From the sequence record JF770475: a stretch of DNA of 47,180 nt. One strand, given 5' to 3'. The position numbers and the translations under genes were made by a program. Positions 1 to 37,171 of this stretch are shown here, one piece after another. The stretch's first letter is position 1. Each line of letters begins with the position of its first letter. The DNA comes from Escherichia phage phiEB49. Below the pieces are notes generated by a model, which saw only the letters and a list, made by a program, of their open reading frames with translations, was not told the DNA's origin and made no database searches.

Positions 1-258
1 TTTGTGTGAAGTCATCATACCATTAAATGCAACCATTGCAAGCATTATCTACGCGTAGAAAAAAGTTATGACCTGTTATTTTTTATGGTTACGCCGCCAG
101 CCCTTGCACTGCAAGGTTGTTATACCGTAGAAAAATGTAGATTGATTTTTTACCCACCTCTTGATGCCCCTCTGGATTGCGCTTCTTGCAAGTATTTATC
201 ACCAGCGCAATATAAAAAATATCACCAATATCTCAGATAATCATGGTTACGGAATAAC

Positions 259-283
259 ATATAATAATAATAATAATAATAAT
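259..283. repeat. (ATA)7 microsatellite in AT-rich control region
   Basis: Direct read: ataataataataataataata; a shorter (ATA)3-4 copy with similar flanks lies at about 19589-19602. Confidence 0.8.
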
Positions 284-460
284 AAATCTAAAGTGTTGTT
301 ATATAAGGGATTTATTTTGTAACCAGCGCGTAAATTCGCGTGAATGTCGTAGATGTGGCTAAATGTCTACACGGTTGAACAGTTTATAACGCGTATATAA
401 AGGAAGGATCTCCGCGGGCGACAAAACCAACCAACTAGTTGATACATCCTCCTTCATTCC

Positions 461-580
461 ATCAATCTATCAATCATTGCTCAATTCGCAACAGTCCAGA
501 AAATCATTGCAAAGGATGCAATATTGCTATAAGTGCAATAGTACAGAGAATCATTGCAATATCTGCAACAATCCGTAAAT
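461..580. repeat. iteron-like cluster of ATCATTGCAA / TGCAATA repeats
   Basis: ATCATTGC at 473, 503, 550; TGCAATA at 517, 534, 555; palindrome GCAATATTGC; non-coding, between divergent gene sets. Confidence 0.6.
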
Positions 581-586
581 CTCACC

Positions 587-632
587 AATAGCACTTTTTG
601 CTAATGACCGCTCAGTCCTGATTGGGTATAGT
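587..632 (+). promoter_or_regulatory. dyad-motif promoter (TAGCA-N5-TGCTA, then TATAGT)
   Basis: Dyad core 589-603, 23-nt spacer, TATAGT 627-632, leader with GAGGAG SD before ATG 661. Confidence 0.5.
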
Positions 633-660
633 CATCACATCAACAGCGAGGAGATATAAA

Positions 661-879
661 ATGAAATCGATTATTATCAACAACGAAATCAAATTTGACG
701 AAGATGCATTGAGCCTGGCTGATATGGGCTATGAGATTGGTGAAGGGGTTGAAGTTTTTGAGCTTGGTGGAGATTACTTTATTGATGCAAAGCAAAATGT
801 TGTTATTGACGGCATTGTAGCCATTTACGAAGGTGAAGAGGTTTACGTAACAAAAGAAGAAATCGAGGTATTAGCATGA
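661..879 (+). CDS. hypothetical early protein (73 aa)
   Basis: ORF track 622..879 trimmed to ATG 661 preceded by GAGGAG SD; stop overlaps next start (ATGA). Confidence 0.5.
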   Translation: MKSIIINNEIKFDEDALSLADMGYEIGEGVEVFELGGDYFIDAKQNVVIDGIVAIYEGEEVYVTKEEIEVLA

Positions 880-1115
880 AGATTCGCTGCACTAATGTTA
901 TTCAAAGCACAGACAAGAAAGTATTAACACCATTCGTAAAAGGCTCTGTATACGACGCTGAGCAGTTAATCATTAACGGTAAGGCAATCCCGAACGAGTG
1001 GTTGATTAATGGCGCTGAGCGACCGCACAAGCACGATTCTGGATGGATTGCTATCGCTGGCTGGAAGGTTGGAATGTTTATACCTGGAATCGCAACTTTT
1101 GACGAGGTGAAATGA
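876..1115 (+). CDS. hypothetical protein (79 aa)
   Basis: ORF track; start overlaps upstream stop. Confidence 0.45.
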   Translation: MKIRCTNVIQSTDKKVLTPFVKGSVYDAEQLIINGKAIPNEWLINGAERPHKHDSGWIAIAGWKVGMFIPGIATFDEVK

Positions 1116-1268
1116 ATGCTAAAGCCATCTGATTTGAATTATTACGATCTGGAAACCATAGCGAAGTACAGCGGCAAAGGCTGGCCTGTTGGTGACTACT
1201 TTAAGGAAGACCTGATAGAGAGCTTTCAGGTTGTCCAGGAAGCAATTACAAAAGCAGCAAAGAAATAG
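1116..1268 (+). CDS. small hypothetical protein (50 aa)
   Basis: ATG immediately after upstream TGA; below ORF-track cutoff; stop lies inside next dyad motif. Confidence 0.3.
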   Translation: MLKPSDLNYYDLETIAKYSGKGWPVGDYFKEDLIESFQVVQEAITKAAKK

Positions 1269-1308
1269 CACTAATTGCTAAAGCACTTACAGAAATTTGA
1301 TGTATATT
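1264..1308 (+). promoter_or_regulatory. dyad-motif promoter
   Basis: TAGCA-ctaat-TGCTA 1266-1280, 22-nt spacer, TATATT 1303-1308, leader AACGAGAGGA before ATG 1338. Confidence 0.5.
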
Positions 1309-1337
1309 TATTTCACACCAAACGAGAGGATATAAAC

Positions 1338-1727
1338 ATGGCAACTACCATTACTAAGAACTGGGTGAGCAGCGATAACAAATTATTTAAAGCTCGCGTT
1401 AAGTTTGTTGATGAATTTGTTAATGGCGTAGTCGAGAAGGTGGGATATGAACAAATAAAGCTTAATGGGAAGTGGGTACAGAAGCCAAAGGGAGGGAGAT
1501 ACATTAATACAAAGACACTGCTTTGCACCAAGGTTGACCACAGCAATCCACTCAAAAAATCATTTACTGAGGGGAAGCGTTATCAGATCGCCATGCACGC
1601 TGGATTAGGTCGTAACGCTGGCTATATCTACGACAATGAAGGTGACGGCTGGCAGCTAACTAGAGACGATGAAGTTGGCTATGATGTTGGTTTTGGCATG
1701 TATAAATTTGAAGCTCAATATAAGTAA
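1338..1727 (+). CDS. hypothetical protein (129 aa)
   Basis: ORF track 1275..1727 trimmed to ATG 1338 with SD GAGAGGA. Confidence 0.5.
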   Translation: MATTITKNWVSSDNKLFKARVKFVDEFVNGVVEKVGYEQIKLNGKWVQKPKGGRYINTKTLLCTKVDHSNPLKKSFTEGKRYQIAMHAGLGRNAGYIYDNEGDGWQLTRDDEVGYDVGFGMYKFEAQYK

Positions 1728-1772
1728 ATAGCACTTTTTGTTAATGACACTACCCGCTCCGGCGGGTATATT
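1727..1772 (+). promoter_or_regulatory. dyad-motif promoter (variant TAGCA-N5-TGTTA) with hairpin in spacer
   Basis: Core 1729-1743; spacer holds hairpin CCCGC-tcc-GCGGG; TATATT 1767-1772; leader CATCGATAACAACGAGAGAG before ATG 1805. Confidence 0.5.
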
Positions 1773-1804
1773 TATATCCATCGATAACAACGAGAGAGAA
1801 TAAG

Positions 1805-3388
1805 ATGTTTGATTTTAACGAAGATAAGTTATCAGTAGAACAGGTAATGTCTGTTGCGGCAGCTGAGAATTTACCACCTTTGCGAGTTGCTATTAATGCA
1901 AATGGCTATCGTCAAAGCGCTTCATTCTGGAAGGCTCCGGTCGAGATTGATTCAACTGGTGATAAATATCCAGTCATCTCACTTGGAAATGATTGTGATG
2001 TTGTCGGGAAGCTATCTAGCAACATTGCACGCTCCGTTCAGTTCCCTGAATCATCTGCTTACATGCATTTTCTTGGATGCATATCAGCTGCAATGCTTGG
2101 TCGATTCACTGTTGAGTATCACGGAACTCAGCAGCCGACATCCCTGTACGTCGTAACCAGTCAGCCGCCATCAACTGGTAAATCAGCAATCAACTCACTC
2201 GCACTCGCGCCAATGATTGCAGAGACCGAGCGACTGAATGAGATTCGCAAGCGTGACCGTAAGAAGATTATGGCTAAGCTGTCAGCTCTGGCAAAAGAGA
2301 TGAAGCAGGAGAAGTCACCTTCCGAGATGGCTGGATTGTTCGAGGAAAAGGAAGAGTTAGAGGAGAAACTAGAGAAACTTTGCGATATCGTATTTCCAGT
2401 ATCAGACACTACGCCTGAAGGTCTTGCGCGAATAAACAACCGTCAGGGTAACTTCTCCGTGATTTCTGATGAAGCGACAAGTGTTAACTCATTACTCGGC
2501 ATGACATATGGCGATGGCTCGAAGAAAACAAACAGTGAACTTGTTCTTAAAGCATGGGATGCCGGTAACGTATCCATCGCACGCGCTAATGCAGAGAACA
2601 ACATGAGCTTTATCGCTATGGGCTGTATCTCAGTAATTGCTCAGGACGAAACGATCGTCGCAATCATGAATGCTGGCGCTCGCGGTATCGGTGTATCAGA
2701 GCGTTTCCTTCTTGTGCGTGAGAAGTCATTCCTTGGTGAGCGTGTTTTCGTCGATGATAATGGAGAATCAACATATGAGCCTATCGATGGCACCCTTAAA
2801 GCTGACTACTTCCGCCTGGTACATGAAATAATGAATGAGCAAGATGTGAGGCTTACCGTAAGCAATTCAGCGATGAAGCATCTCAACCGTGCGCGCCAGG
2901 AAATGGAACCTCACCTTGCAGATGGCGGTAAGTATTCACATACAATGTTGCGCGGCGCGTTAGGTAAAATGGATAAACAGGTAATTCGCATTGCGGCAGT
3001 TCTTCACACTATCCGCAATTGGTTCAACCCTAATGGCGGTAGTCCGCAGAAGTCAAGGGAGATTGAACTAGAAACGATGCAAGAGGCTTTATTGATGTTT
3101 GAAGAACTGAGTAAGACTTATTTGTCTTCCGCTAACGCGGCTGGTCACGCTGGTGATAATGCAGAGATGAATAAGCTAATTGATATCCTTATTAAGCAAG
3201 GTAAGAACAGCAAAGGAGTTGTAGGGTTGCGCTCACTATATGAAGCGGCGCGTAAGGTTAGACCGTTTGAGGCTCAGGCTGGCGTAATGGCTAAGATTAA
3301 AGACCATTTACTGCCGATGCTTGATGAGAAAAACTACACCTGCCTGACTGGCGATAAGATTTACATTAATCCACGACTGCTGGGGTGA
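1805..3388 (+). CDS. large early protein with P-loop-like motif (PSTGKS); N- and C-terminal domains shared with 46106..46648
   Basis: 527-aa ORF; N-terminus MFDF..RVAINANGYRQSA and C-terminus NSKGVVGLRSLYEAARKV..GDKIYINPRLL recur in the 180-aa paralog; function not assigned. Confidence 0.6.
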   Translation: MFDFNEDKLSVEQVMSVAAAENLPPLRVAINANGYRQSASFWKAPVEIDSTGDKYPVISLGNDCDVVGKLSSNIARSVQFPESSAYMHFLGCISAAMLGRFTVEYHGTQQPTSLYVVTSQPPSTGKSAINSLALAPMIAETERLNEIRKRDRKKIMAKLSALAKEMKQEKSPSEMAGLFEEKEELEEKLEKLCDIVFPVSDTTPEGLARINNRQGNFSVISDEATSVNSLLGMTYGDGSKKTNSELVLKAWDAGNVSIARANAENNMSFIAMGCISVIAQDETIVAIMNAGARGIGVSERFLLVREKSFLGERVFVDDNGESTYEPIDGTLKADYFRLVHEIMNEQDVRLTVSNSAMKHLNRARQEMEPHLADGGKYSHTMLRGALGKMDKQVIRIAAVLHTIRNWFNPNGGSPQKSREIELETMQEALLMFEELSKTYLSSANAAGHAGDNAEMNKLIDILIKQGKNSKGVVGLRSLYEAARKVRPFEAQAGVMAKIKDHLLPMLDEKNYTCLTGDKIYINPRLLG

Positions 3389-3545
3389 CTTATGAGAAAG
3401 ATTGAAAGTTTTGTCATGTATTCATTAATACCTATTCACTTGATTAGCATTTTGTTTTGCATACTATCATTAATCCACGACTTCTGGGGTAGATTATGAA
3501 AAATCTTAAAAACTTTATTGTGCATTCATTAATACCTTTTTTGTT
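3365..3545 (+). repeat. tandem duplication (2 copies, about 105 bp apart) covering the 3' end of the 527-aa gene and a small peptide gene
   Basis: ATTAATCCACGACT(G/T)CTGGGGT at 3365-3388 and 3469-3492, each followed by ATGA and a hydrophobic mini-ORF. Confidence 0.6.
3392..3499 (+). CDS. small hydrophobic peptide (35 aa)
   Basis: MRKIESFVMYSLIPIHLISILFCILSLIHDFWGRL; SD GGGGTGA; paralog of next ORF. Confidence 0.3.
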   Translation: MRKIESFVMYSLIPIHLISILFCILSLIHDFWGRL

Positions 3546-3585
3546 TTTCACATTTGTTTTGGTAATGACTTTAATTTATGGGTGA
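3496..3585 (+). CDS. small hydrophobic peptide (29 aa), paralog of preceding
   Basis: MKNLKNFIVHSLIPFLFFTFVLVMTLIYG; start overlaps upstream stop (ATGA). Confidence 0.3.
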   Translation: MKNLKNFIVHSLIPFLFFTFVLVMTLIYG

Positions 3586-3588
3586 TTT

Positions 3589-3924
3589 ATGTTCTTACTA
3601 GACGTTTTCAGATTTTGTGAGAGTTATGAGAGGTTTAATCGGCAGCACCTGGCGGTATTCATTTATCGCCACAAGGACTGCGAAAGAATGGCAAAAGCCG
3701 CGGGAGTTACTACACGTTACTTTGCATCATCTGCTTCAAAGGAGTTTTTGGCCAGGTGCATGACTGAAGGTTACATCGATGTGGTTAATGGTAATTACTG
3801 CAGCAAAGGCAGCACAAAGCGACCATTCGGATTCAGCTTCAGGTGCCTTAATGGTGAGAGCGATAAGTACACTAAAGAGATGATGACAATAGGTGAAATG
3901 ACAGACGACCAGCTATTTGCATAA
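3589..3924 (+). CDS. hypothetical protein (111 aa)
   Basis: ORF track; followed by bidirectional terminator. Confidence 0.5.
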   Translation: MFLLDVFRFCESYERFNRQHLAVFIYRHKDCERMAKAAGVTTRYFASSASKEFLARCMTEGYIDVVNGNYCSKGSTKRPFGFSFRCLNGESDKYTKEMMTIGEMTDDQLFA

Positions 3925-10816: not shown

Positions 10817-10853
10817 GTTCTCAAATGCCTTTCATGTTCGTTCTATTGACGCT

Positions 10854-10897
10854 ATAATAACAGCCATCAAAGCCAATGTTTAACAAAAAATGCTATC
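10854..10897 (-). promoter_or_regulatory. dyad-motif promoter for helicase operon; dyad also lies in 5' UTR of divergent HTH gene
   Basis: Core 10881-10895 (TAACA-aaaaa-TGCTA); minus TATTAT 10854-10859; plus-strand TATAAT 10853-10858 serves the divergent gene. Confidence 0.45.
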
Positions 10898-10909
10898 GAG
10901 GTGATAAAA

Positions 10910-11383
10910 GTGAGTGAAATTGATAAGCGTACTCTTAACGGTAATAACGGAACAATACGAACAGAAGACAAGAAGCCTCGGAAACGACCGTCAGGTTACT
11001 ATGTTTTAAAGGATGAGGTAAGGGCGGGATTGAGGGCAAGACTTGAAATTGTTTTAGACTTTTACGGCAGCAAGGCGAATATGGCGAAACAATTGAAGGT
11101 TACTCGCCAGGCTGTTGAGGAGTGGTTTAATCGCGGCATGATGTCGGCGCGCGGTGCTCAGCTAGCTCACAATCGATACAAGCGAACAGGTGAGGGCTTT
11201 AGAGCTACATTCTGCCGTCCAGATCTTCAATTTGACGGCAACGGTAAGCCTCTCACTCTTCGTTGCAAAAAGCGCCACATGCTTCGCGTGGTTACTGATG
11301 CTGAATTAGCAACTAAGCCTGAGTGCCGTTCATGGCGCAAAATTAAAGCCGCAAACGAAGCAGCACGAAAAGCTAAAGAGTAA
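10910..11383 (+). CDS. HTH DNA-binding protein (Cro/YdaS-like), candidate transcription regulator
   Basis: GTG start with SD GAGGTGA; helix-turn-helix-like segment SKANMAKQLKVTRQAVEEWFNRG; basic C-terminus. Confidence 0.5.
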   Translation: MSEIDKRTLNGNNGTIRTEDKKPRKRPSGYYVLKDEVRAGLRARLEIVLDFYGSKANMAKQLKVTRQAVEEWFNRGMMSARGAQLAHNRYKRTGEGFRATFCRPDLQFDGNGKPLTLRCKKRHMLRVVTDAELATKPECRSWRKIKAANEAARKAKE

Positions 11384-19371: not shown

Positions 19372-19726
19372 TTGTATATCGGTGTAAACCGCACATAAAT
19401 ACGCCTCGCGAGTCTCTGGGCTGCATGGATGCTGAATGTAACTGTTGTAACCAATGTATCCACCACTTTTGCACCCTATCTATATCTATATGCATTTCCT
19501 CCTTAACTGGAAATAAAACATAGTCTTTTAGAAAAACATACAAACATAGCTATAGAGAGTAGTTACAATATATACATAGTAATATATATAATAATAATAA
19601 TACTCTAAACCCTTATTATATAAGGATTTATAGATGTAACTAATGCGTATCTGCGCGTAAAAAGCGTATACAATTTTCCGCGGATGATATTGTATACATC
19701 GAGTTACATCGGTTACGCGTATATCA

Positions 19727-19772
19727 AATAGCACGATTTGCTAAAGACTCCAGCAGCAGCCTTTGCTATAGT
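19727..19772 (+). promoter_or_regulatory. dyad-motif promoter
   Basis: Core 19729-19743; 23-nt spacer; TGcTATAGT 19764-19772; leader CATCGAAACGAAAC and SD AAGGA before ATG 19813. Confidence 0.5.
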
Positions 19773-27957: not shown

Positions 27958-28002
27958 ATTGTATCAAGCCAAGTCCATTTGGCTTTAACAAAAAGTGCTA
28001 TT
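27958..28002 (-). promoter_or_regulatory. dyad-motif promoter for HNH gene
   Basis: Core 27986-28000 (TAACA-N5-TGCTA) abutting tape measure stop; minus TACAAT 27958-27963. Confidence 0.45.
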
Positions 28003-30979
28003 AACTGTAACCGCGCAAGAACTGGTAAGCAGTCCCGCCTTGCTGGAAGGACTGAGTAATCTCTTCTGCGATGATAACCCTGATACCAGATTCTAACTGT
28101 TTAGCGTCATTACCGCCACCACCGCCAAGACCTGTCTGAACGGTAACATTCACACCACCAACGTTAACATTGCTTCCACCAACAAGTCCACCAGTCGCAT
28201 AACCAGGACCAGACCCAACGACACCGCCGTTTGCGTATCCGCGCATCAACTTGTACAGGTTGTCTACGCCAATCCTTGAAGTTGCCTCCTTCGTAAACAC
28301 GAATTCACCACGATGCACCGTACCAGCTGGTTCATACTTACCTCCGTTACCAGTGTAGCCACCAGATGCAAAGCCAAAAGATTTACCAAAGTTAGATATG
28401 GCTGTACCTGTTGAGCCGCCACTACCGCCAAAACTAGATATCGTTGACTCAATCGCCTTAATCAAAAGAAGCTGCGTTGCAATGCGTGCAATCTGCTTCA
28501 AAATCGATGCTGTAAACTCACGGAAATTAGCCTCACCAGTAGTTACCAGGTTTGTGATCTGGTCAGTCAATCCATTGAAAGCACTCATTGCCAGCTCAGA
28601 GCCAATCTGGTTGAAGTTAGACAATTCGTCAGCCGTCTCTGCAAATGCAGACTTAACTCCAGCCAACCAATCGCCACGCAAGGCATCTTCCTGATTGTAG
28701 AAATTCTGACGAGCCTGCAATAGTGCCTGGAAATCAGTGTCATCTACGGAGCCACCTTTAGAAACTTGCTGAGCCTTAAGCGCTTCTATCTCCTTCAGTC
28801 TGTCAGCTTCTCGATTTGCTAATCCAGCACCAAGGCTAACTGATGAGGCTTCAGCGTTAATCTGGCGTGTCTTCTTGATGTTATCATCAAGGAGTTTATT
28901 GGCCCTTTCCTGTAATACAATCTGGTCTCCGAGCTCAGCCTTCTCTCGAGCAAGCCCTAAGATTTTATCCTGTTGCAACAGTAAAGCCCTCTGTTGCTTT
29001 GTGATGGTTCCGTCTGCGAGCCTTTCATTAAGGATTGCAAACTTAGCTTCTTCTGCGAACAACTGCTTGCGCTCGTTGCTGACAACATCACTAATCTGGC
29101 GGTGTTCCTGAAGAACCTTAAGCTGAGCTTGCAGGGCTAAAACGCCAGACTCGTAGTTGATGGTAAGGTCTCGCTGGTCCTTAACACCCTCCTTCCTTTT
29201 CTTGTTTGCCTCCTCAATGTCCTTTAGCTCCTGCTCTCTAGCTTTCCTGCGCTTCTCGAACTCGGCATCAGACTCACCAGTTCTCTGCTGCTCTTCCTGG
29301 GTTGAGGTAACATAACCAAGCTCACCTTTACGAATCCTTGCGTCACGCTCAGCTACTGACTTAACTAACTCTTCGTTAGCTTTCTTTATCCCTTCGTTTT
29401 GCTTTTCGAACTGCTGAACTAGCTCGCTACCAACCCCGTCGGCACCAGGAATGTTCTGGAATGCTTTAATTGTTGAGATCAGGAAGTTATTAATCAGAAC
29501 ATCACCCTGACCAATCAATAGCTGAATCTGCTCAATAGTACCGGCAACAACATCTACGATGAGGTTTAGTGCGCCAAGCGTCCTGTTACCAATATCAGTC
29601 CAAACCCGAGAAACGAAGTTTTTGAAGCTATCCCAGGCCCTCTCGAGAGGCGTTAGTGACTCTGCAACTTTGTTTAGGCGATTCTCCATTACATCAGCAA
29701 ATAGCTTCGTAGCAGCCGTTACAGCCTGCGTCTGACCCTCTGTAATCCTAATCTGCTCGATGTACTTAAGCTGACCAGCAGTTAAGAAGTTAAACTGCTT
29801 ATCAAGCTCAGCCAGACCTTTGACCGGGTCATTTGCGATTTTATCGAAGTTCTTGACGATATCATCAGCTGAATCACCAGTAACAGTTGCCCAGCGCGCA
29901 GTTGCCTCGGTAATAATTGAAATCTGAGCTACCGTGCGGCTTCCACTTGCGACCAATCCATTAGCAATCTCCTGACCAAGGCCTTGAGTTGCTCCAGCAG
30001 CCTCAGCCGCATTTCTCGCCAGATTCTGAACTGCACCTGCTGATAAGTTTGCTGATTGCCCGGTCAGGGTAAGCGTCTGGTTTAACTGCGATGTGTTCTG
30101 ATAGGCCTGATAAGCTGATAGTCCCAAAGCGCCAAGAGCAACACCCAGGGCTCCAGCTGCGACAATGAACGGATTTAATGCAGCAAGAGCAAACCTGAAC
30201 GTGTTGGCAACACCACCAAAGCTATCCTTAATCTGACCACCCTGCTGAATTGCAATTAGCCAGATTGGAATGCCGCCAGCCAATGAAGTTCCAATATCTG
30301 TAATCTGCGCTGGCAACTGCCTAATGGCGTTCTTATATGCGCCAACAGATAGACCAGAACGCTGCAATGCCTGAGATTGCCTTGTTAATGCTGCTGCGGA
30401 TTGGTCGGCTGCCGCTCCGATTTGTGCAATAATTGGCGCAGCCTGGCTTGAGACTCCTAGTTCTGCCGCCCTTAGCTTTAACAGCTCCTCGCGCGTTAAT
30501 GTTGCTGCCTGAGCCTCAGCTTGCAAAGACTTGAGGAATCTTTCAGCCTGGTTTGCGGCTTGAGCCTTAGCTTTTGACGCCTCGATTGCAGCCCTGCCTT
30601 CCTCTGTTAATGCACGCTGCGAGTTACGAAGCCTATTAGTCTGAGTCTCAAGAGCCTCACTTAAACGGTAGAATTCAGCCTCAGGAACAACGCCAGCAGA
30701 GAATGATTTATCCAGTGCGTCAGCTGCTTCCTGTAGTTTGCGAAGTTTTCCTGCTGTTGGGTCGATTGCCGTTTGCAGTTGACGGAAAGCCTGACGCTGT
30801 TCAGACAAGTATCTTGCCGTGTCGCGGGCCTGATTCTTGGCAACCAACTCAGCGTTAACGAACTCACTAACACCAGCAGCCGCCTGTTCATTGGCGCGTT
30901 TAAATTCTTGCAGGGACTTTGTGCCCTGGTCAACCTGGCGAACGTCAACGCCAAGTGTGATACCTGCAAATTCTGCCAT
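28001..30979 (-). CDS. tail tape measure protein
   Basis: About 990 aa, Ala/Gln-rich coiled-coil, Gly-rich C-terminus; start set to ATG 30979 after GGAGG. Confidence 0.85.
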   Translation of the reverse strand: MAEFAGITLGVDVRQVDQGTKSLQEFKRANEQAAAGVSEFVNAELVAKNQARDTARYLSEQRQAFRQLQTAIDPTAGKLRKLQEAADALDKSFSAGVVPEAEFYRLSEALETQTNRLRNSQRALTEEGRAAIEASKAKAQAANQAERFLKSLQAEAQAATLTREELLKLRAAELGVSSQAAPIIAQIGAAADQSAAALTRQSQALQRSGLSVGAYKNAIRQLPAQITDIGTSLAGGIPIWLIAIQQGGQIKDSFGGVANTFRFALAALNPFIVAAGALGVALGALGLSAYQAYQNTSQLNQTLTLTGQSANLSAGAVQNLARNAAEAAGATQGLGQEIANGLVASGSRTVAQISIITEATARWATVTGDSADDIVKNFDKIANDPVKGLAELDKQFNFLTAGQLKYIEQIRITEGQTQAVTAATKLFADVMENRLNKVAESLTPLERAWDSFKNFVSRVWTDIGNRTLGALNLIVDVVAGTIEQIQLLIGQGDVLINNFLISTIKAFQNIPGADGVGSELVQQFEKQNEGIKKANEELVKSVAERDARIRKGELGYVTSTQEEQQRTGESDAEFEKRRKAREQELKDIEEANKKRKEGVKDQRDLTINYESGVLALQAQLKVLQEHRQISDVVSNERKQLFAEEAKFAILNERLADGTITKQQRALLLQQDKILGLAREKAELGDQIVLQERANKLLDDNIKKTRQINAEASSVSLGAGLANREADRLKEIEALKAQQVSKGGSVDDTDFQALLQARQNFYNQEDALRGDWLAGVKSAFAETADELSNFNQIGSELAMSAFNGLTDQITNLVTTGEANFREFTASILKQIARIATQLLLIKAIESTISSFGGSGGSTGTAISNFGKSFGFASGGYTGNGGKYEPAGTVHRGEFVFTKEATSRIGVDNLYKLMRGYANGGVVGSGPGYATGGLVGGSNVNVGGVNVTVQTGLGGGGGNDAKQLESGIRVIIAEEITQSFQQGGTAYQFLRGYS

Positions 30980-30989
30980 GTAACCTCCA

Positions 30990-31021
30990 TAAAAAAACCT
31001 CCACAAAGGGAGGTTATTTTT
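30990..31021 (-). terminator. hairpin with flanking T/A runs upstream of tape measure gene
   Basis: CCTCC-acaaag-GGAGG with A-run and T-run flanks. Confidence 0.45.
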
Positions 31022-36481: not shown

Positions 36482-37171
36482 TTAGCTTGCGATGATCTTA
36501 GCTACGCGAAGCTGCGCGAGAAGGTCGTTTAGCTTAGTGCCTACCGCGTTAACTGCAGCGGTGGCTGATGTAGCTACTTCGGCGGCTTCAGCACCAGTCA
36601 CGGTCTGGCTCCCAACGTTAGCAACCGCCGCACCAGCAACAAACTTGTTACCCGGCATTGCGTTAGTCGCGCCAGTGCCAATCTGGATGGCTCCAGCAGC
36701 AGTGGTGCTTGCAAGTGGGAGACCAGACACAGGAACTACGCCACCAATGTTAGTCAAAGTCTTGTTTCCAGCCATAGCCTGGTTTGCTGCGGTGCCGACA
36801 ATTGGCGAGAAAGTGGATGGCTTTCCAGTTACGTCTCCCCACGCCACAGAGACGGAGCCGCCAGCACTGCCTTTATATGCATAGGCAAAGAACTGACCTG
36901 ACGACAGACTCAGGCTTGATGTGTCAATGGTGAAGCCATCATCAGACGCGGCCTCGATAGCATCGAACAGATTGCGCATATTGGTGGAGGTGATTACCTT
37001 CGCTTCGGTGATTGAGCTGTCAGCACCTTTTGCGACAACGACAGAATATGACTGAGAGCCACTTACCGTGATTTTACTTACTGGCTGAAAACCATCATCG
37101 ATAGCGGCTTGAAGCAGCGTGTTGAATCTACCGCTATCCGCACTGATAGCTTTAACTTCGGTATAAGCCAT
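36482..37171 (-). CDS. structural protein with Ala/Gly-rich repeats
   Basis: ORF track; repeats like AMAGNK / AMPGNK. Confidence 0.4.
   Translation of the reverse strand: MAYTEVKAISADSGRFNTLLQAAIDDGFQPVSKITVSGSQSYSVVVAKGADSSITEAKVITSTNMRNLFDAIEAASDDGFTIDTSSLSLSSGQFFAYAYKGSAGGSVSVAWGDVTGKPSTFSPIVGTAANQAMAGNKTLTNIGGVVPVSGLPLASTTAAGAIQIGTGATNAMPGNKFVAGAAVANVGSQTVTGAEAAEVATSATAAVNAVGTKLNDLLAQLRVAKIIAS

Follow-up and report, generated by a model that had tools for sequence, protein, structure and literature searches.

A candidate packaging-initiation (pac) and divergent-promoter region in the T1-like Escherichia phage phiEB49

Sequence elements of the divergent intergenic region

The DNA analyzed here (sequence record JF770475; 47,180 bp, referred to below as the window) represents the complete genome of Escherichia phage phiEB49, a T1-like siphovirus (Drexlerviridae, Rogunavirinae) whose best DNA matches, with identities of 84-88%, are Shigella phage Sf12, the Opt-719/Opt-79 group and vB_EcoS_AKS96. 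We focused on positions 1-660, a repeat-rich segment that a preliminary description had put forward as a candidate replication origin or regulatory hub. Most phiEB49 genes are encoded on the minus strand; a plus-strand block extends from 661 to 3924. On the circularized map, positions 1-660 together with 47164-47180 form an intergenic region between the gene for a DUF7174 protein of 171 amino acids (aa) on the left (46648-47163, minus strand) and a 72-aa gene on the right (661-879, plus strand), and it is indeed non-coding and divergent, as had been proposed. The equivalent gap in related phages is also about 675 bp long. The short motifs listed for the region can be found there as well: three copies each of ATCATTGC and TGCAATA, the palindromes GCAATATTGC and CCTTGCAcTGCAAGG, CGCGT, CCGCGG, and a TAGCA dyad that is present only at the right edge (589-603). 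An Rfam search of positions 1-900 gave no match at E ≤ 1, and a structured RNA was rejected on these grounds.

Conservation across the region was assessed in an alignment of eight phages that represent at least three lineages (Rogunavirinae, Braunvirinae, and Nouzillyvirus). Invariant columns make up 66% of positions 476-569 and 82% of positions 589-610, compared to 65% of positions 257-330, 15% of positions 1-205, and 9% of positions 401-445. The conserved segment 476-569 is an array of four 17-bp dyads of the form ATTGC-N7-GCAA(T/C), located at 476-492, 506-522, 523-539, and 553-569. Their centers are spaced by 30, 17, and 30 bp so that the four dyads make up two tandem 47-bp units, which are 74% identical to each other; AATC precedes three of the four dyads. 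The whole genome contains five exact dyads, four of them within these 94 bp. The fifth (28476-28492) is situated inside a 1001-aa open reading frame (ORF; 28001-31006), within a short tandem repeat (TGCGTTGCAA, two copies), and is probably a chance match.

The array also accounts for three of the four genomic copies of ATCATTGC (at 473, 503, and 550); 0.01 copies would be expected in positions 440-590 (p ~ 4e-8). TGCAATA, with the same expectation for this interval, is likewise found there three times (at 517, 534, and 555), the palindrome GCAATATTGC occupies 518-527, and the three copies of AATCATTGC all have one orientation. There is no second copy of the array in the genome, while the adjoining AT-rich block does possess one. 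In the alignment, the half-sites of the dyads are invariant and the N7 spacers are variable, a pattern that resembles that of a protein-binding site. The variable columns of the array distribute over the three positions of a reading frame as 14/20/16. Since this reveals no codon periodicity, a 40-aa ORF present at this place in AKS96 is not the reason for the conservation of the array; furthermore, the open frames are inconsistent among the relatives. The array stays conserved while the first rightward gene next to it varies among phages, so it is not an operator for the product of its neighbor; this argues for a core function such as packaging. The array is a probable candidate for the recognition site of the small terminase (TerS).

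The right edge of the region contains a predicted rightward promoter together with its leader (586-660, plus strand). It comprises the TAGCA box (589-603), a -35-like ATGACC (604-609), a -10 region TATAGT (627-632), the ribosome-binding site GAGGAG (649-654), and the start codon ATG at 661. The TAGCA box, TAGCAC-N3-TTGCTA, is present 21 times in the genome (2.3 copies expected), including, besides the site at 589-603, those at 1266-1280, 1729-1743, 19729-19743, and 46094-46108. In 19 of the 21 cases the box is followed by six nucleotides (xxGACx-like, a weak -35 region), 17 further nucleotides and a -10 region similar to TATAGT, TATATT, or TATTAT, and then by a conserved leader of the CATCGAAACGAGAGG type. 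In this fixed layout, the box occupies promoter positions of about -37 to -51, and the whole set looks like an activator-dependent promoter family. The box corresponds to the 21-nucleotide repeat aaATAGCACnnnTTGnTAAAA described for TLS, T1, and Rogue1, the function of which was left open (PMC11447400); AATAGCACTTTTTGCTAAT at 587-605 (plus strand), 74 nucleotides upstream of the ATG at 661, qualifies as such a repeat.

Positions 1-205 form a variable, lineage-specific spacer. DNA similarity of the relatives to the window begins only at about 195-257, and the left-hand TTGCAA sites are therefore lineage-specific. Exact TTGCAA hexamers in the region are confined to positions 36, 186, 507, and 554; two further elements reported near 103 and 110 are TTGCAc and TGCAAG inside the non-conserved palindrome CCTTGCAcTGCAAGG (102-116), besides which the spacer carries two other TTGCAA-like sites. 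Genome-wide, TTGCAA is not enriched (23 copies vs. 27 expected), and the best k-mer of positions 1-205, TGCAAG (three copies, p ~ 9e-5), fails multiple-testing correction. The assumption of TTGCAA iterons at 37-190 could consequently not be upheld, as these sites are neither significant nor conserved. One of them is the -35 hexamer of a predicted leftward sigma70-type promoter (14-41, minus strand), in which TTGCAA (41-36) is followed by a 16-bp spacer and an extended -10 region, TGgTATGAT (22-14); AKS96, Opt-79, and C119 carry TTGCGA-16-TGgTAAGAT at the aligned position. This promoter would drive the DUF7174 gene that starts at 47163. The other TTGCAA-like sites in positions 1-205 are without demonstrable function and are taken for chance occurrences. 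A literature search for transcription start sites in Drexlerviridae returned nothing relevant.

The variable segment 1-205 seems to move together with the allele of the DUF7174 gene. The genome is mosaic in this respect: its TerS protein is 97% identical to that of Rogue1, and its DUF7174 protein is only 37% identical to the Rogue1 protein and 72% identical to the AKS96 protein.

Packaging termini of related phages and the dyad array

Packaging termini of relatives were placed on the window by homology. Position 1 of the UDF157lw record, which had been re-organized to a PhageTerm terminus of the headful type with a preferred pac site (PMC10838988), corresponds to window position 445/446. The forward-strand terminus that PhageTerm located at 36,862 in MSK (p = 1.6e-9; PMC8421802) maps to about 438/439, and the end of SU57, which was fixed by PhageTerm and an abrupt change in read depth (PMC7718038), maps to about 421/422. 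The reference record of T1 (NC_005833), in which positions 1-2800 are annotated as terminal repeat, starts inside the equivalent intergenic region. Its position 1 aligns to window position 522/523, the center of GCAAT/ATTGC and the junction of the two 47-bp units. The records of Rtp, Rogue1, ACG-M12, and TH27 start at about window positions 519-537, and the restriction-mapped pac of TLS, which is position 1 of the TLS record, lies at the same relative place. Several record starts were discarded as uninformative: that of Sf12 reflects an assembly overlap, those of BECP10 and ESCO41 are set at a TAGCA box, and the vB_EcoS-xxxx records are arbitrarily permuted.

The termini or record starts of SU57, MSK, UDF157lw, T1, and Rtp hence all fall into positions 421-537, the place at which a unique chromosome end would be expected by homology, and the array at this place is present only once in the genome. 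There is also a common polarity: every terminus faces forward when read in the orientation of T1, and the single orientation of the three AATCATTGC copies fits unidirectional packaging. In the relatives, packaged DNA runs from the array toward the AT-rich tract, which is leftward in the window and toward the gene for TerS (terS). We consider it probable that positions 1-660 hold the pac site, set between divergent promoters, of a T1-like phage that packages its DNA by the headful mechanism. The earlier notion of a regulatory hub fits well with this interpretation, since two predicted host-type promoters, a leftward one of the sigma70 type and a rightward one with a TAGCA box, are found together with the place at which the relatives start packaging.

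We propose that packaging in phiEB49 might proceed as follows. The gp3-like small terminase would assemble on the unique four-dyad array (476-569), and the large terminase (TerL) would then open each concatemer with an initial cut within the array or next to it, at the positions homologous to 421-446 and about 522-537. The cut has been localized in this way in relatives and would be expected at the same positions in phiEB49. Packaging would then proceed leftward past the AT-rich block, the leftward promoter, the small early genes, terS, the TerL gene (terL), and the structural genes, ending when the capsid is filled. The predicted packaging-start zone proper (421-446, minus strand) is where the termini of SU57, MSK, and UDF157lw map. 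A perfect 10-bp palindrome, CAACTAGTTG (432-441), is present in this zone and overlaps a match to the IHF consensus, TATCAACTAGTTG (432-444, minus strand). This palindrome is conserved only in the closest relatives; a scan of the region for host sites gave this one IHF-consensus match and one GATC.

The genes for the putative components of the packaging machinery are readily recognized. TerS (42708-43223, minus strand; 171 aa) is a P22 gp3-like protein (phrog_606, PF16677) with 31% identity to gp3 of P22/L and is presumed to be the reader of the pac site; terS is located about 4.4 kb from the array, downstream in the direction of packaging. The large terminase of 520 aa is encoded at 40592-42154 (minus strand). 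A gene for an HNH endonuclease carrying an AP2-like domain (42154-42642, minus strand) is inserted between terS and terL.

Several points weigh against assigning the pac function to this array. The terminus of phiEB49 itself is placed by homology alone. A distance of about 80-100 bp separates the two groups of reference points (421-446 and 522-537), and the T1 point is a record start. Binding of TerS to the dyads is purely inferred, and 17-bp dyads of the dimer type would suit a Cro-like helix-turn-helix (HTH) regulator equally well. Furthermore, the pac sites of P22, Sf6, and SPP1 are found in or next to terS, an arrangement that is typical, if not universal, whereas the phiEB49 array lies about 4.4 kb upstream of this gene; T1 (8.4 kb) and TLS (8.8 kb) are arranged in the same way. 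Finally, TLS, whose TerS is 49% identical to that of phiEB49, lacks these dyads, and T1 (57%) keeps two of them. Co-variation between repeats and TerS therefore neither supports nor refutes the assignment. Nor can it separate TerS from the helicase of the phage as the reader of the repeats, since among the window, T1, and TLS the TerS proteins (49-57%) and the winged-helix domains of the helicase (48-59%) diverge about equally.

The AT-rich block, its second copy, and alternative readings

Upstream of the terminus zone, positions 246-400 (plus strand) form a block that combines AT-rich DNA with GCGT repeats (copy A). It contains an ATA microsatellite (261-285), TCTAAA, TTATATAAGGGATTTAT, GTAACC, three GCGT repeats at a 10-bp phase (326-354), and ACGCGTATAT (389-398). 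The microsatellite is present as described before; it consists of 8.3 copies, not of seven. The 40-bp stretch that starts at 261 has an AT content of 90%. CGCGT is found at 52, 327, 337, and 390, and CCGCGG (412-417) lies just beyond the block. A second copy of the block (copy B; 19562-19726, plus strand) abuts another TAGCA-box promoter (19729-19743) and is not accompanied by a dyad array. Positions 257-344 of copy A and 19574-19661 of copy B are 76.7% identical over 90 bp (E = 8.5e-10). Copy A is separated from its promoter by about 190 bp that hold the terminus zone and the array. Since copy B adjoins its promoter without an array, the array behaves as an element of its own that is peculiar to the packaging-start locus, and the block, being duplicated without the array, is in turn a separate element.

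A syntenic duplication exists in T1 (220-309 vs. 30016-30095, E = 2e-8) and in TLS (194-313 vs. 28812-28929, E = 8e-4). The copies within a genome are more alike than orthologous copies across subfamilies; no similarity between copy A of the window and copy A of T1 is detectable, which indicates concerted evolution within each genome. In T1, all six genomic copies of TGTAACA are found in block A or B, as are four of the eight copies of GTGAACA in TLS; TGTAAC, GGTTAC, and TCCGCGG are modestly enriched in the blocks of the window. These findings fit two sites that are read by one phage-specific protein. Both a bipartite origin and two control regions of early promoters are conceivable, and the data favor neither. 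This block, and not the TTGCAA array, is the only part of the region with origin-like anatomy.

A two-site replication element resembling ori/crr of P4 or oriL/oriR of SPP1, in which positions 246-400 and 19562-19726 would be read by one phage-specific protein, is thus conceivable, though we regard it as unlikely; it is compatible with the array acting as pac. In its favor are the presence, in either copy, of an AT tract and of three GCGT repeats phased by 10 bp, the syntenic duplication with concerted evolution in T1 and TLS, and the confinement of lineage-specific short repeats (TGTAACA in T1, GTGAACA in TLS) to the two regions. The same facts, however, are explained by a shared role as promoter/operator regions of the OL/OR kind, as both copies lie upstream of TAGCA-box promoters in divergent regions. 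Moreover, sequences resembling promoters are frequent in AT-rich DNA; one instance is TTTAGA-17-TATTAT, present on the minus strand in copies A and B. The enrichment of short repeats in the window itself is modest.

A reader for such a pair of sites might be the winged helix at the C-terminus of the DUF3987 helicase (1805-3388, plus strand; 527 aa), the P-loop protein of the preliminary description. This winged-helix domain is 95% shared by the window and AKS96 although positions 1-205 are unrelated. A 180-aa paralog that lacks the ATPase core of the helicase is encoded at 46106-46648 (minus strand). Its N-terminal 48 aa are 58% identical to the helicase and its C-terminal winged helix is 73% identical. 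It may act as a competitor or regulator at whatever the ends of the helicase bind.

We find it improbable that the four dyads are operators for an HTH regulator that is encoded by the phage and acts as a dimer (the 160-aa Cro-like protein at 10901-11383 would be an example), which would control the rightward TAGCA-box promoter while another sequence specifies the nearby cut. HTH dimers typically recognize dyads of this kind, 17 bp long and with variable spacers, the array is located at about -70 to -165 of the promoter, and the phage does encode a Cro-like HTH protein, the Pfam match of which is below the cut-off. However, none of the other 20 TAGCA-box promoters possesses such an array, the array is conserved while its supposed target genes differ among phages, and its coincidence with the termini in five relatives would be left unexplained. 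Of similarly low probability, in our view, is a joint reading in which the four dyads are the landing pad of TerS, and as such the first T1-family pac defined at the sequence level, and in which the block is one half of a bipartite replication element of the P4 ori/crr kind; the DUF3987 helicase would read copies A and B, 19 kb apart, through its winged helix, and the 180-aa paralog would be a competitor or regulator.

The least probable of these readings takes the TTGCAA/ATCATTGC repeats for the iterons of a replication origin, to which the helicase or the 180-aa paralog would bind in order to melt the AT-rich DNA close by. An origin is still to be located in T1-like phages, none having been found in the TLS and SU57 studies (PMC11447400, PMC7718038), and the primase is of the P4-alpha/T7 gp4 type; yet the array abuts the packaging termini, is absent from block copy B, consists of palindromic dyads spaced by 30/17/30 bp and not of helically phased direct iterons, and lies about 190 bp from the AT tract, while its left-hand TTGCAA counterparts are neither significant nor conserved. 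Three direct repeats in helical phase with an adjoining AT-rich stretch occur elsewhere, in the separate block (the GCGT repeats of positions 326-354 and the ATA tract). Positions 1-700 contain no perfect DnaA box (TTWTNCACA), only matches with one mismatch. The suggested inspection of GC skew did reveal a cumulative minimum at the region; since this minimum coincides with the switch in transcription direction, it is confounded. The array had also been placed beside the P-loop gene, but the helicase gene is 1.1 kb distant, with four genes in between. Winged helices, moreover, serve as protein-interaction modules, too, and the predicted helix 3 of the helicase domain is not basic. Nothing found in this analysis directly supports a replication origin. 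A sequence-specific initiator is plausible, and nothing ties it to the TTGCAA/ATCATTGC array; the origin reading finds no support for the array and survives as a speculative reading of the 246-400 block.

Other non-coding gaps of the genome were surveyed as origin candidates, and among them only that at 19.3-20.0 kb was informative. The 84-bp gap at 10817-10900 is too small, and the interval from 43.7 to 45.0 kb carries tRNA genes. These are the adjacent genes for tRNA-Val(AAC) and tRNA-Arg(CCT) at 43830-43906 and 43908-43983 (minus strand); for published relatives (Rogue1, AHP24 group), an arginyl-tRNA alone is reported. The gap at 3389-3588, behind the helicase gene, proved to contain two tiny, tandem paralogous ORFs (3392-3499 and 3496-3585, plus strand) instead of repeat-rich non-coding DNA. 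Their hydrophobic products of 35 and 29 aa begin with MRKIESFVMYSLIP and MKNLKNFIVHSLIP, respectively. GATC is about three-fold under-represented genome-wide (57 sites vs. about 180 expected from base composition); TLS reportedly possesses 254 GATC sites and a Dam methylase.

Significance and comparison with known systems

T1, notorious as a contaminant in laboratories, belongs to the original T phages, and the accessible literature contains no sequence-level definition of its pac or of its origin. The dyad array is not described in the accessible papers on Rogue1/AKS96-type phages, TLS, SU57, and MSK. A candidate pac element would allow a consistent orientation of T1-family genomes, would explain the transduction of plasmids and host DNA by these phages, and would help in building vectors that can be packaged. 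The AT-rich block, with its two concertedly evolving copies, offers a specific place to seek the missing origin or the control of early promoters.

The pac regions of T1 and TLS occupy the same divergent intergenic position as the candidate of phiEB49, between two clusters of small early genes. Position 1 of T1 falls within the aligned array, T1 and phiEB49 have two RTTGC-N7-GCAAC dyads as well as CAATCA repeats in common, and packaging likewise proceeds toward terS; unlike in phiEB49, the right half of the array is replaced in T1 by TTCCA/TGGAA repeats. TLS carries entirely different repeats (AGACCAATCGGTCT, two copies, and a GATC cluster), and its pac has been guessed from a resemblance to AGATTT of P22 (PMC11447400).

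With respect to the AT-rich block, P4 ori/crr, which is served by the alpha primase-helicase, provides a parallel in that two separated cis regions have short repeats in common. Further P4-like traits are the annotation of the T1 primase as P4-alpha-like and the winged helix at the end of the phiEB49 helicase. A sequence or fold match specific for the origin-binding domain of P4 alpha was not found.

P22 shares with phiEB49 a small terminase homologous to gp3 (PF16677, 31%) and headful packaging. Its pac is a single, asymmetric site of about 22 bp inside gene 3, whereas the phiEB49 candidate is composed of multiple dyads in non-coding DNA far from terS. An analogy, but no more, can be drawn to cosB of lambda (R sites, the IHF site I1, and cosN), where multiple TerS sites lie beside the cut; phiEB49 has an IHF-consensus match in its cut zone. 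Unlike lambda, phiEB49 would package by the headful mechanism and not from cos, its array is on the unpackaged side of the first cut, and its IHF match is not conserved outside Rogunavirinae.

The pac regions of SPP1 (pacL-pacC-pacR) and P1 (hexamer clusters flanking the cut) consist of several short repeated terminase-binding elements around or beside the cleavage zone and direct unidirectional headful packaging. The phiEB49 candidate resembles them in its short repeated elements beside a predicted cleavage zone. It differs in that these elements are 17-bp dyads in two 47-bp units, in its distance of 4.4 kb from terS, and in being free of Dam (GATC) involvement, the region containing a single GATC. 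The phiEB49 array does not reveal a new kind of element; it adds detail to a known one.

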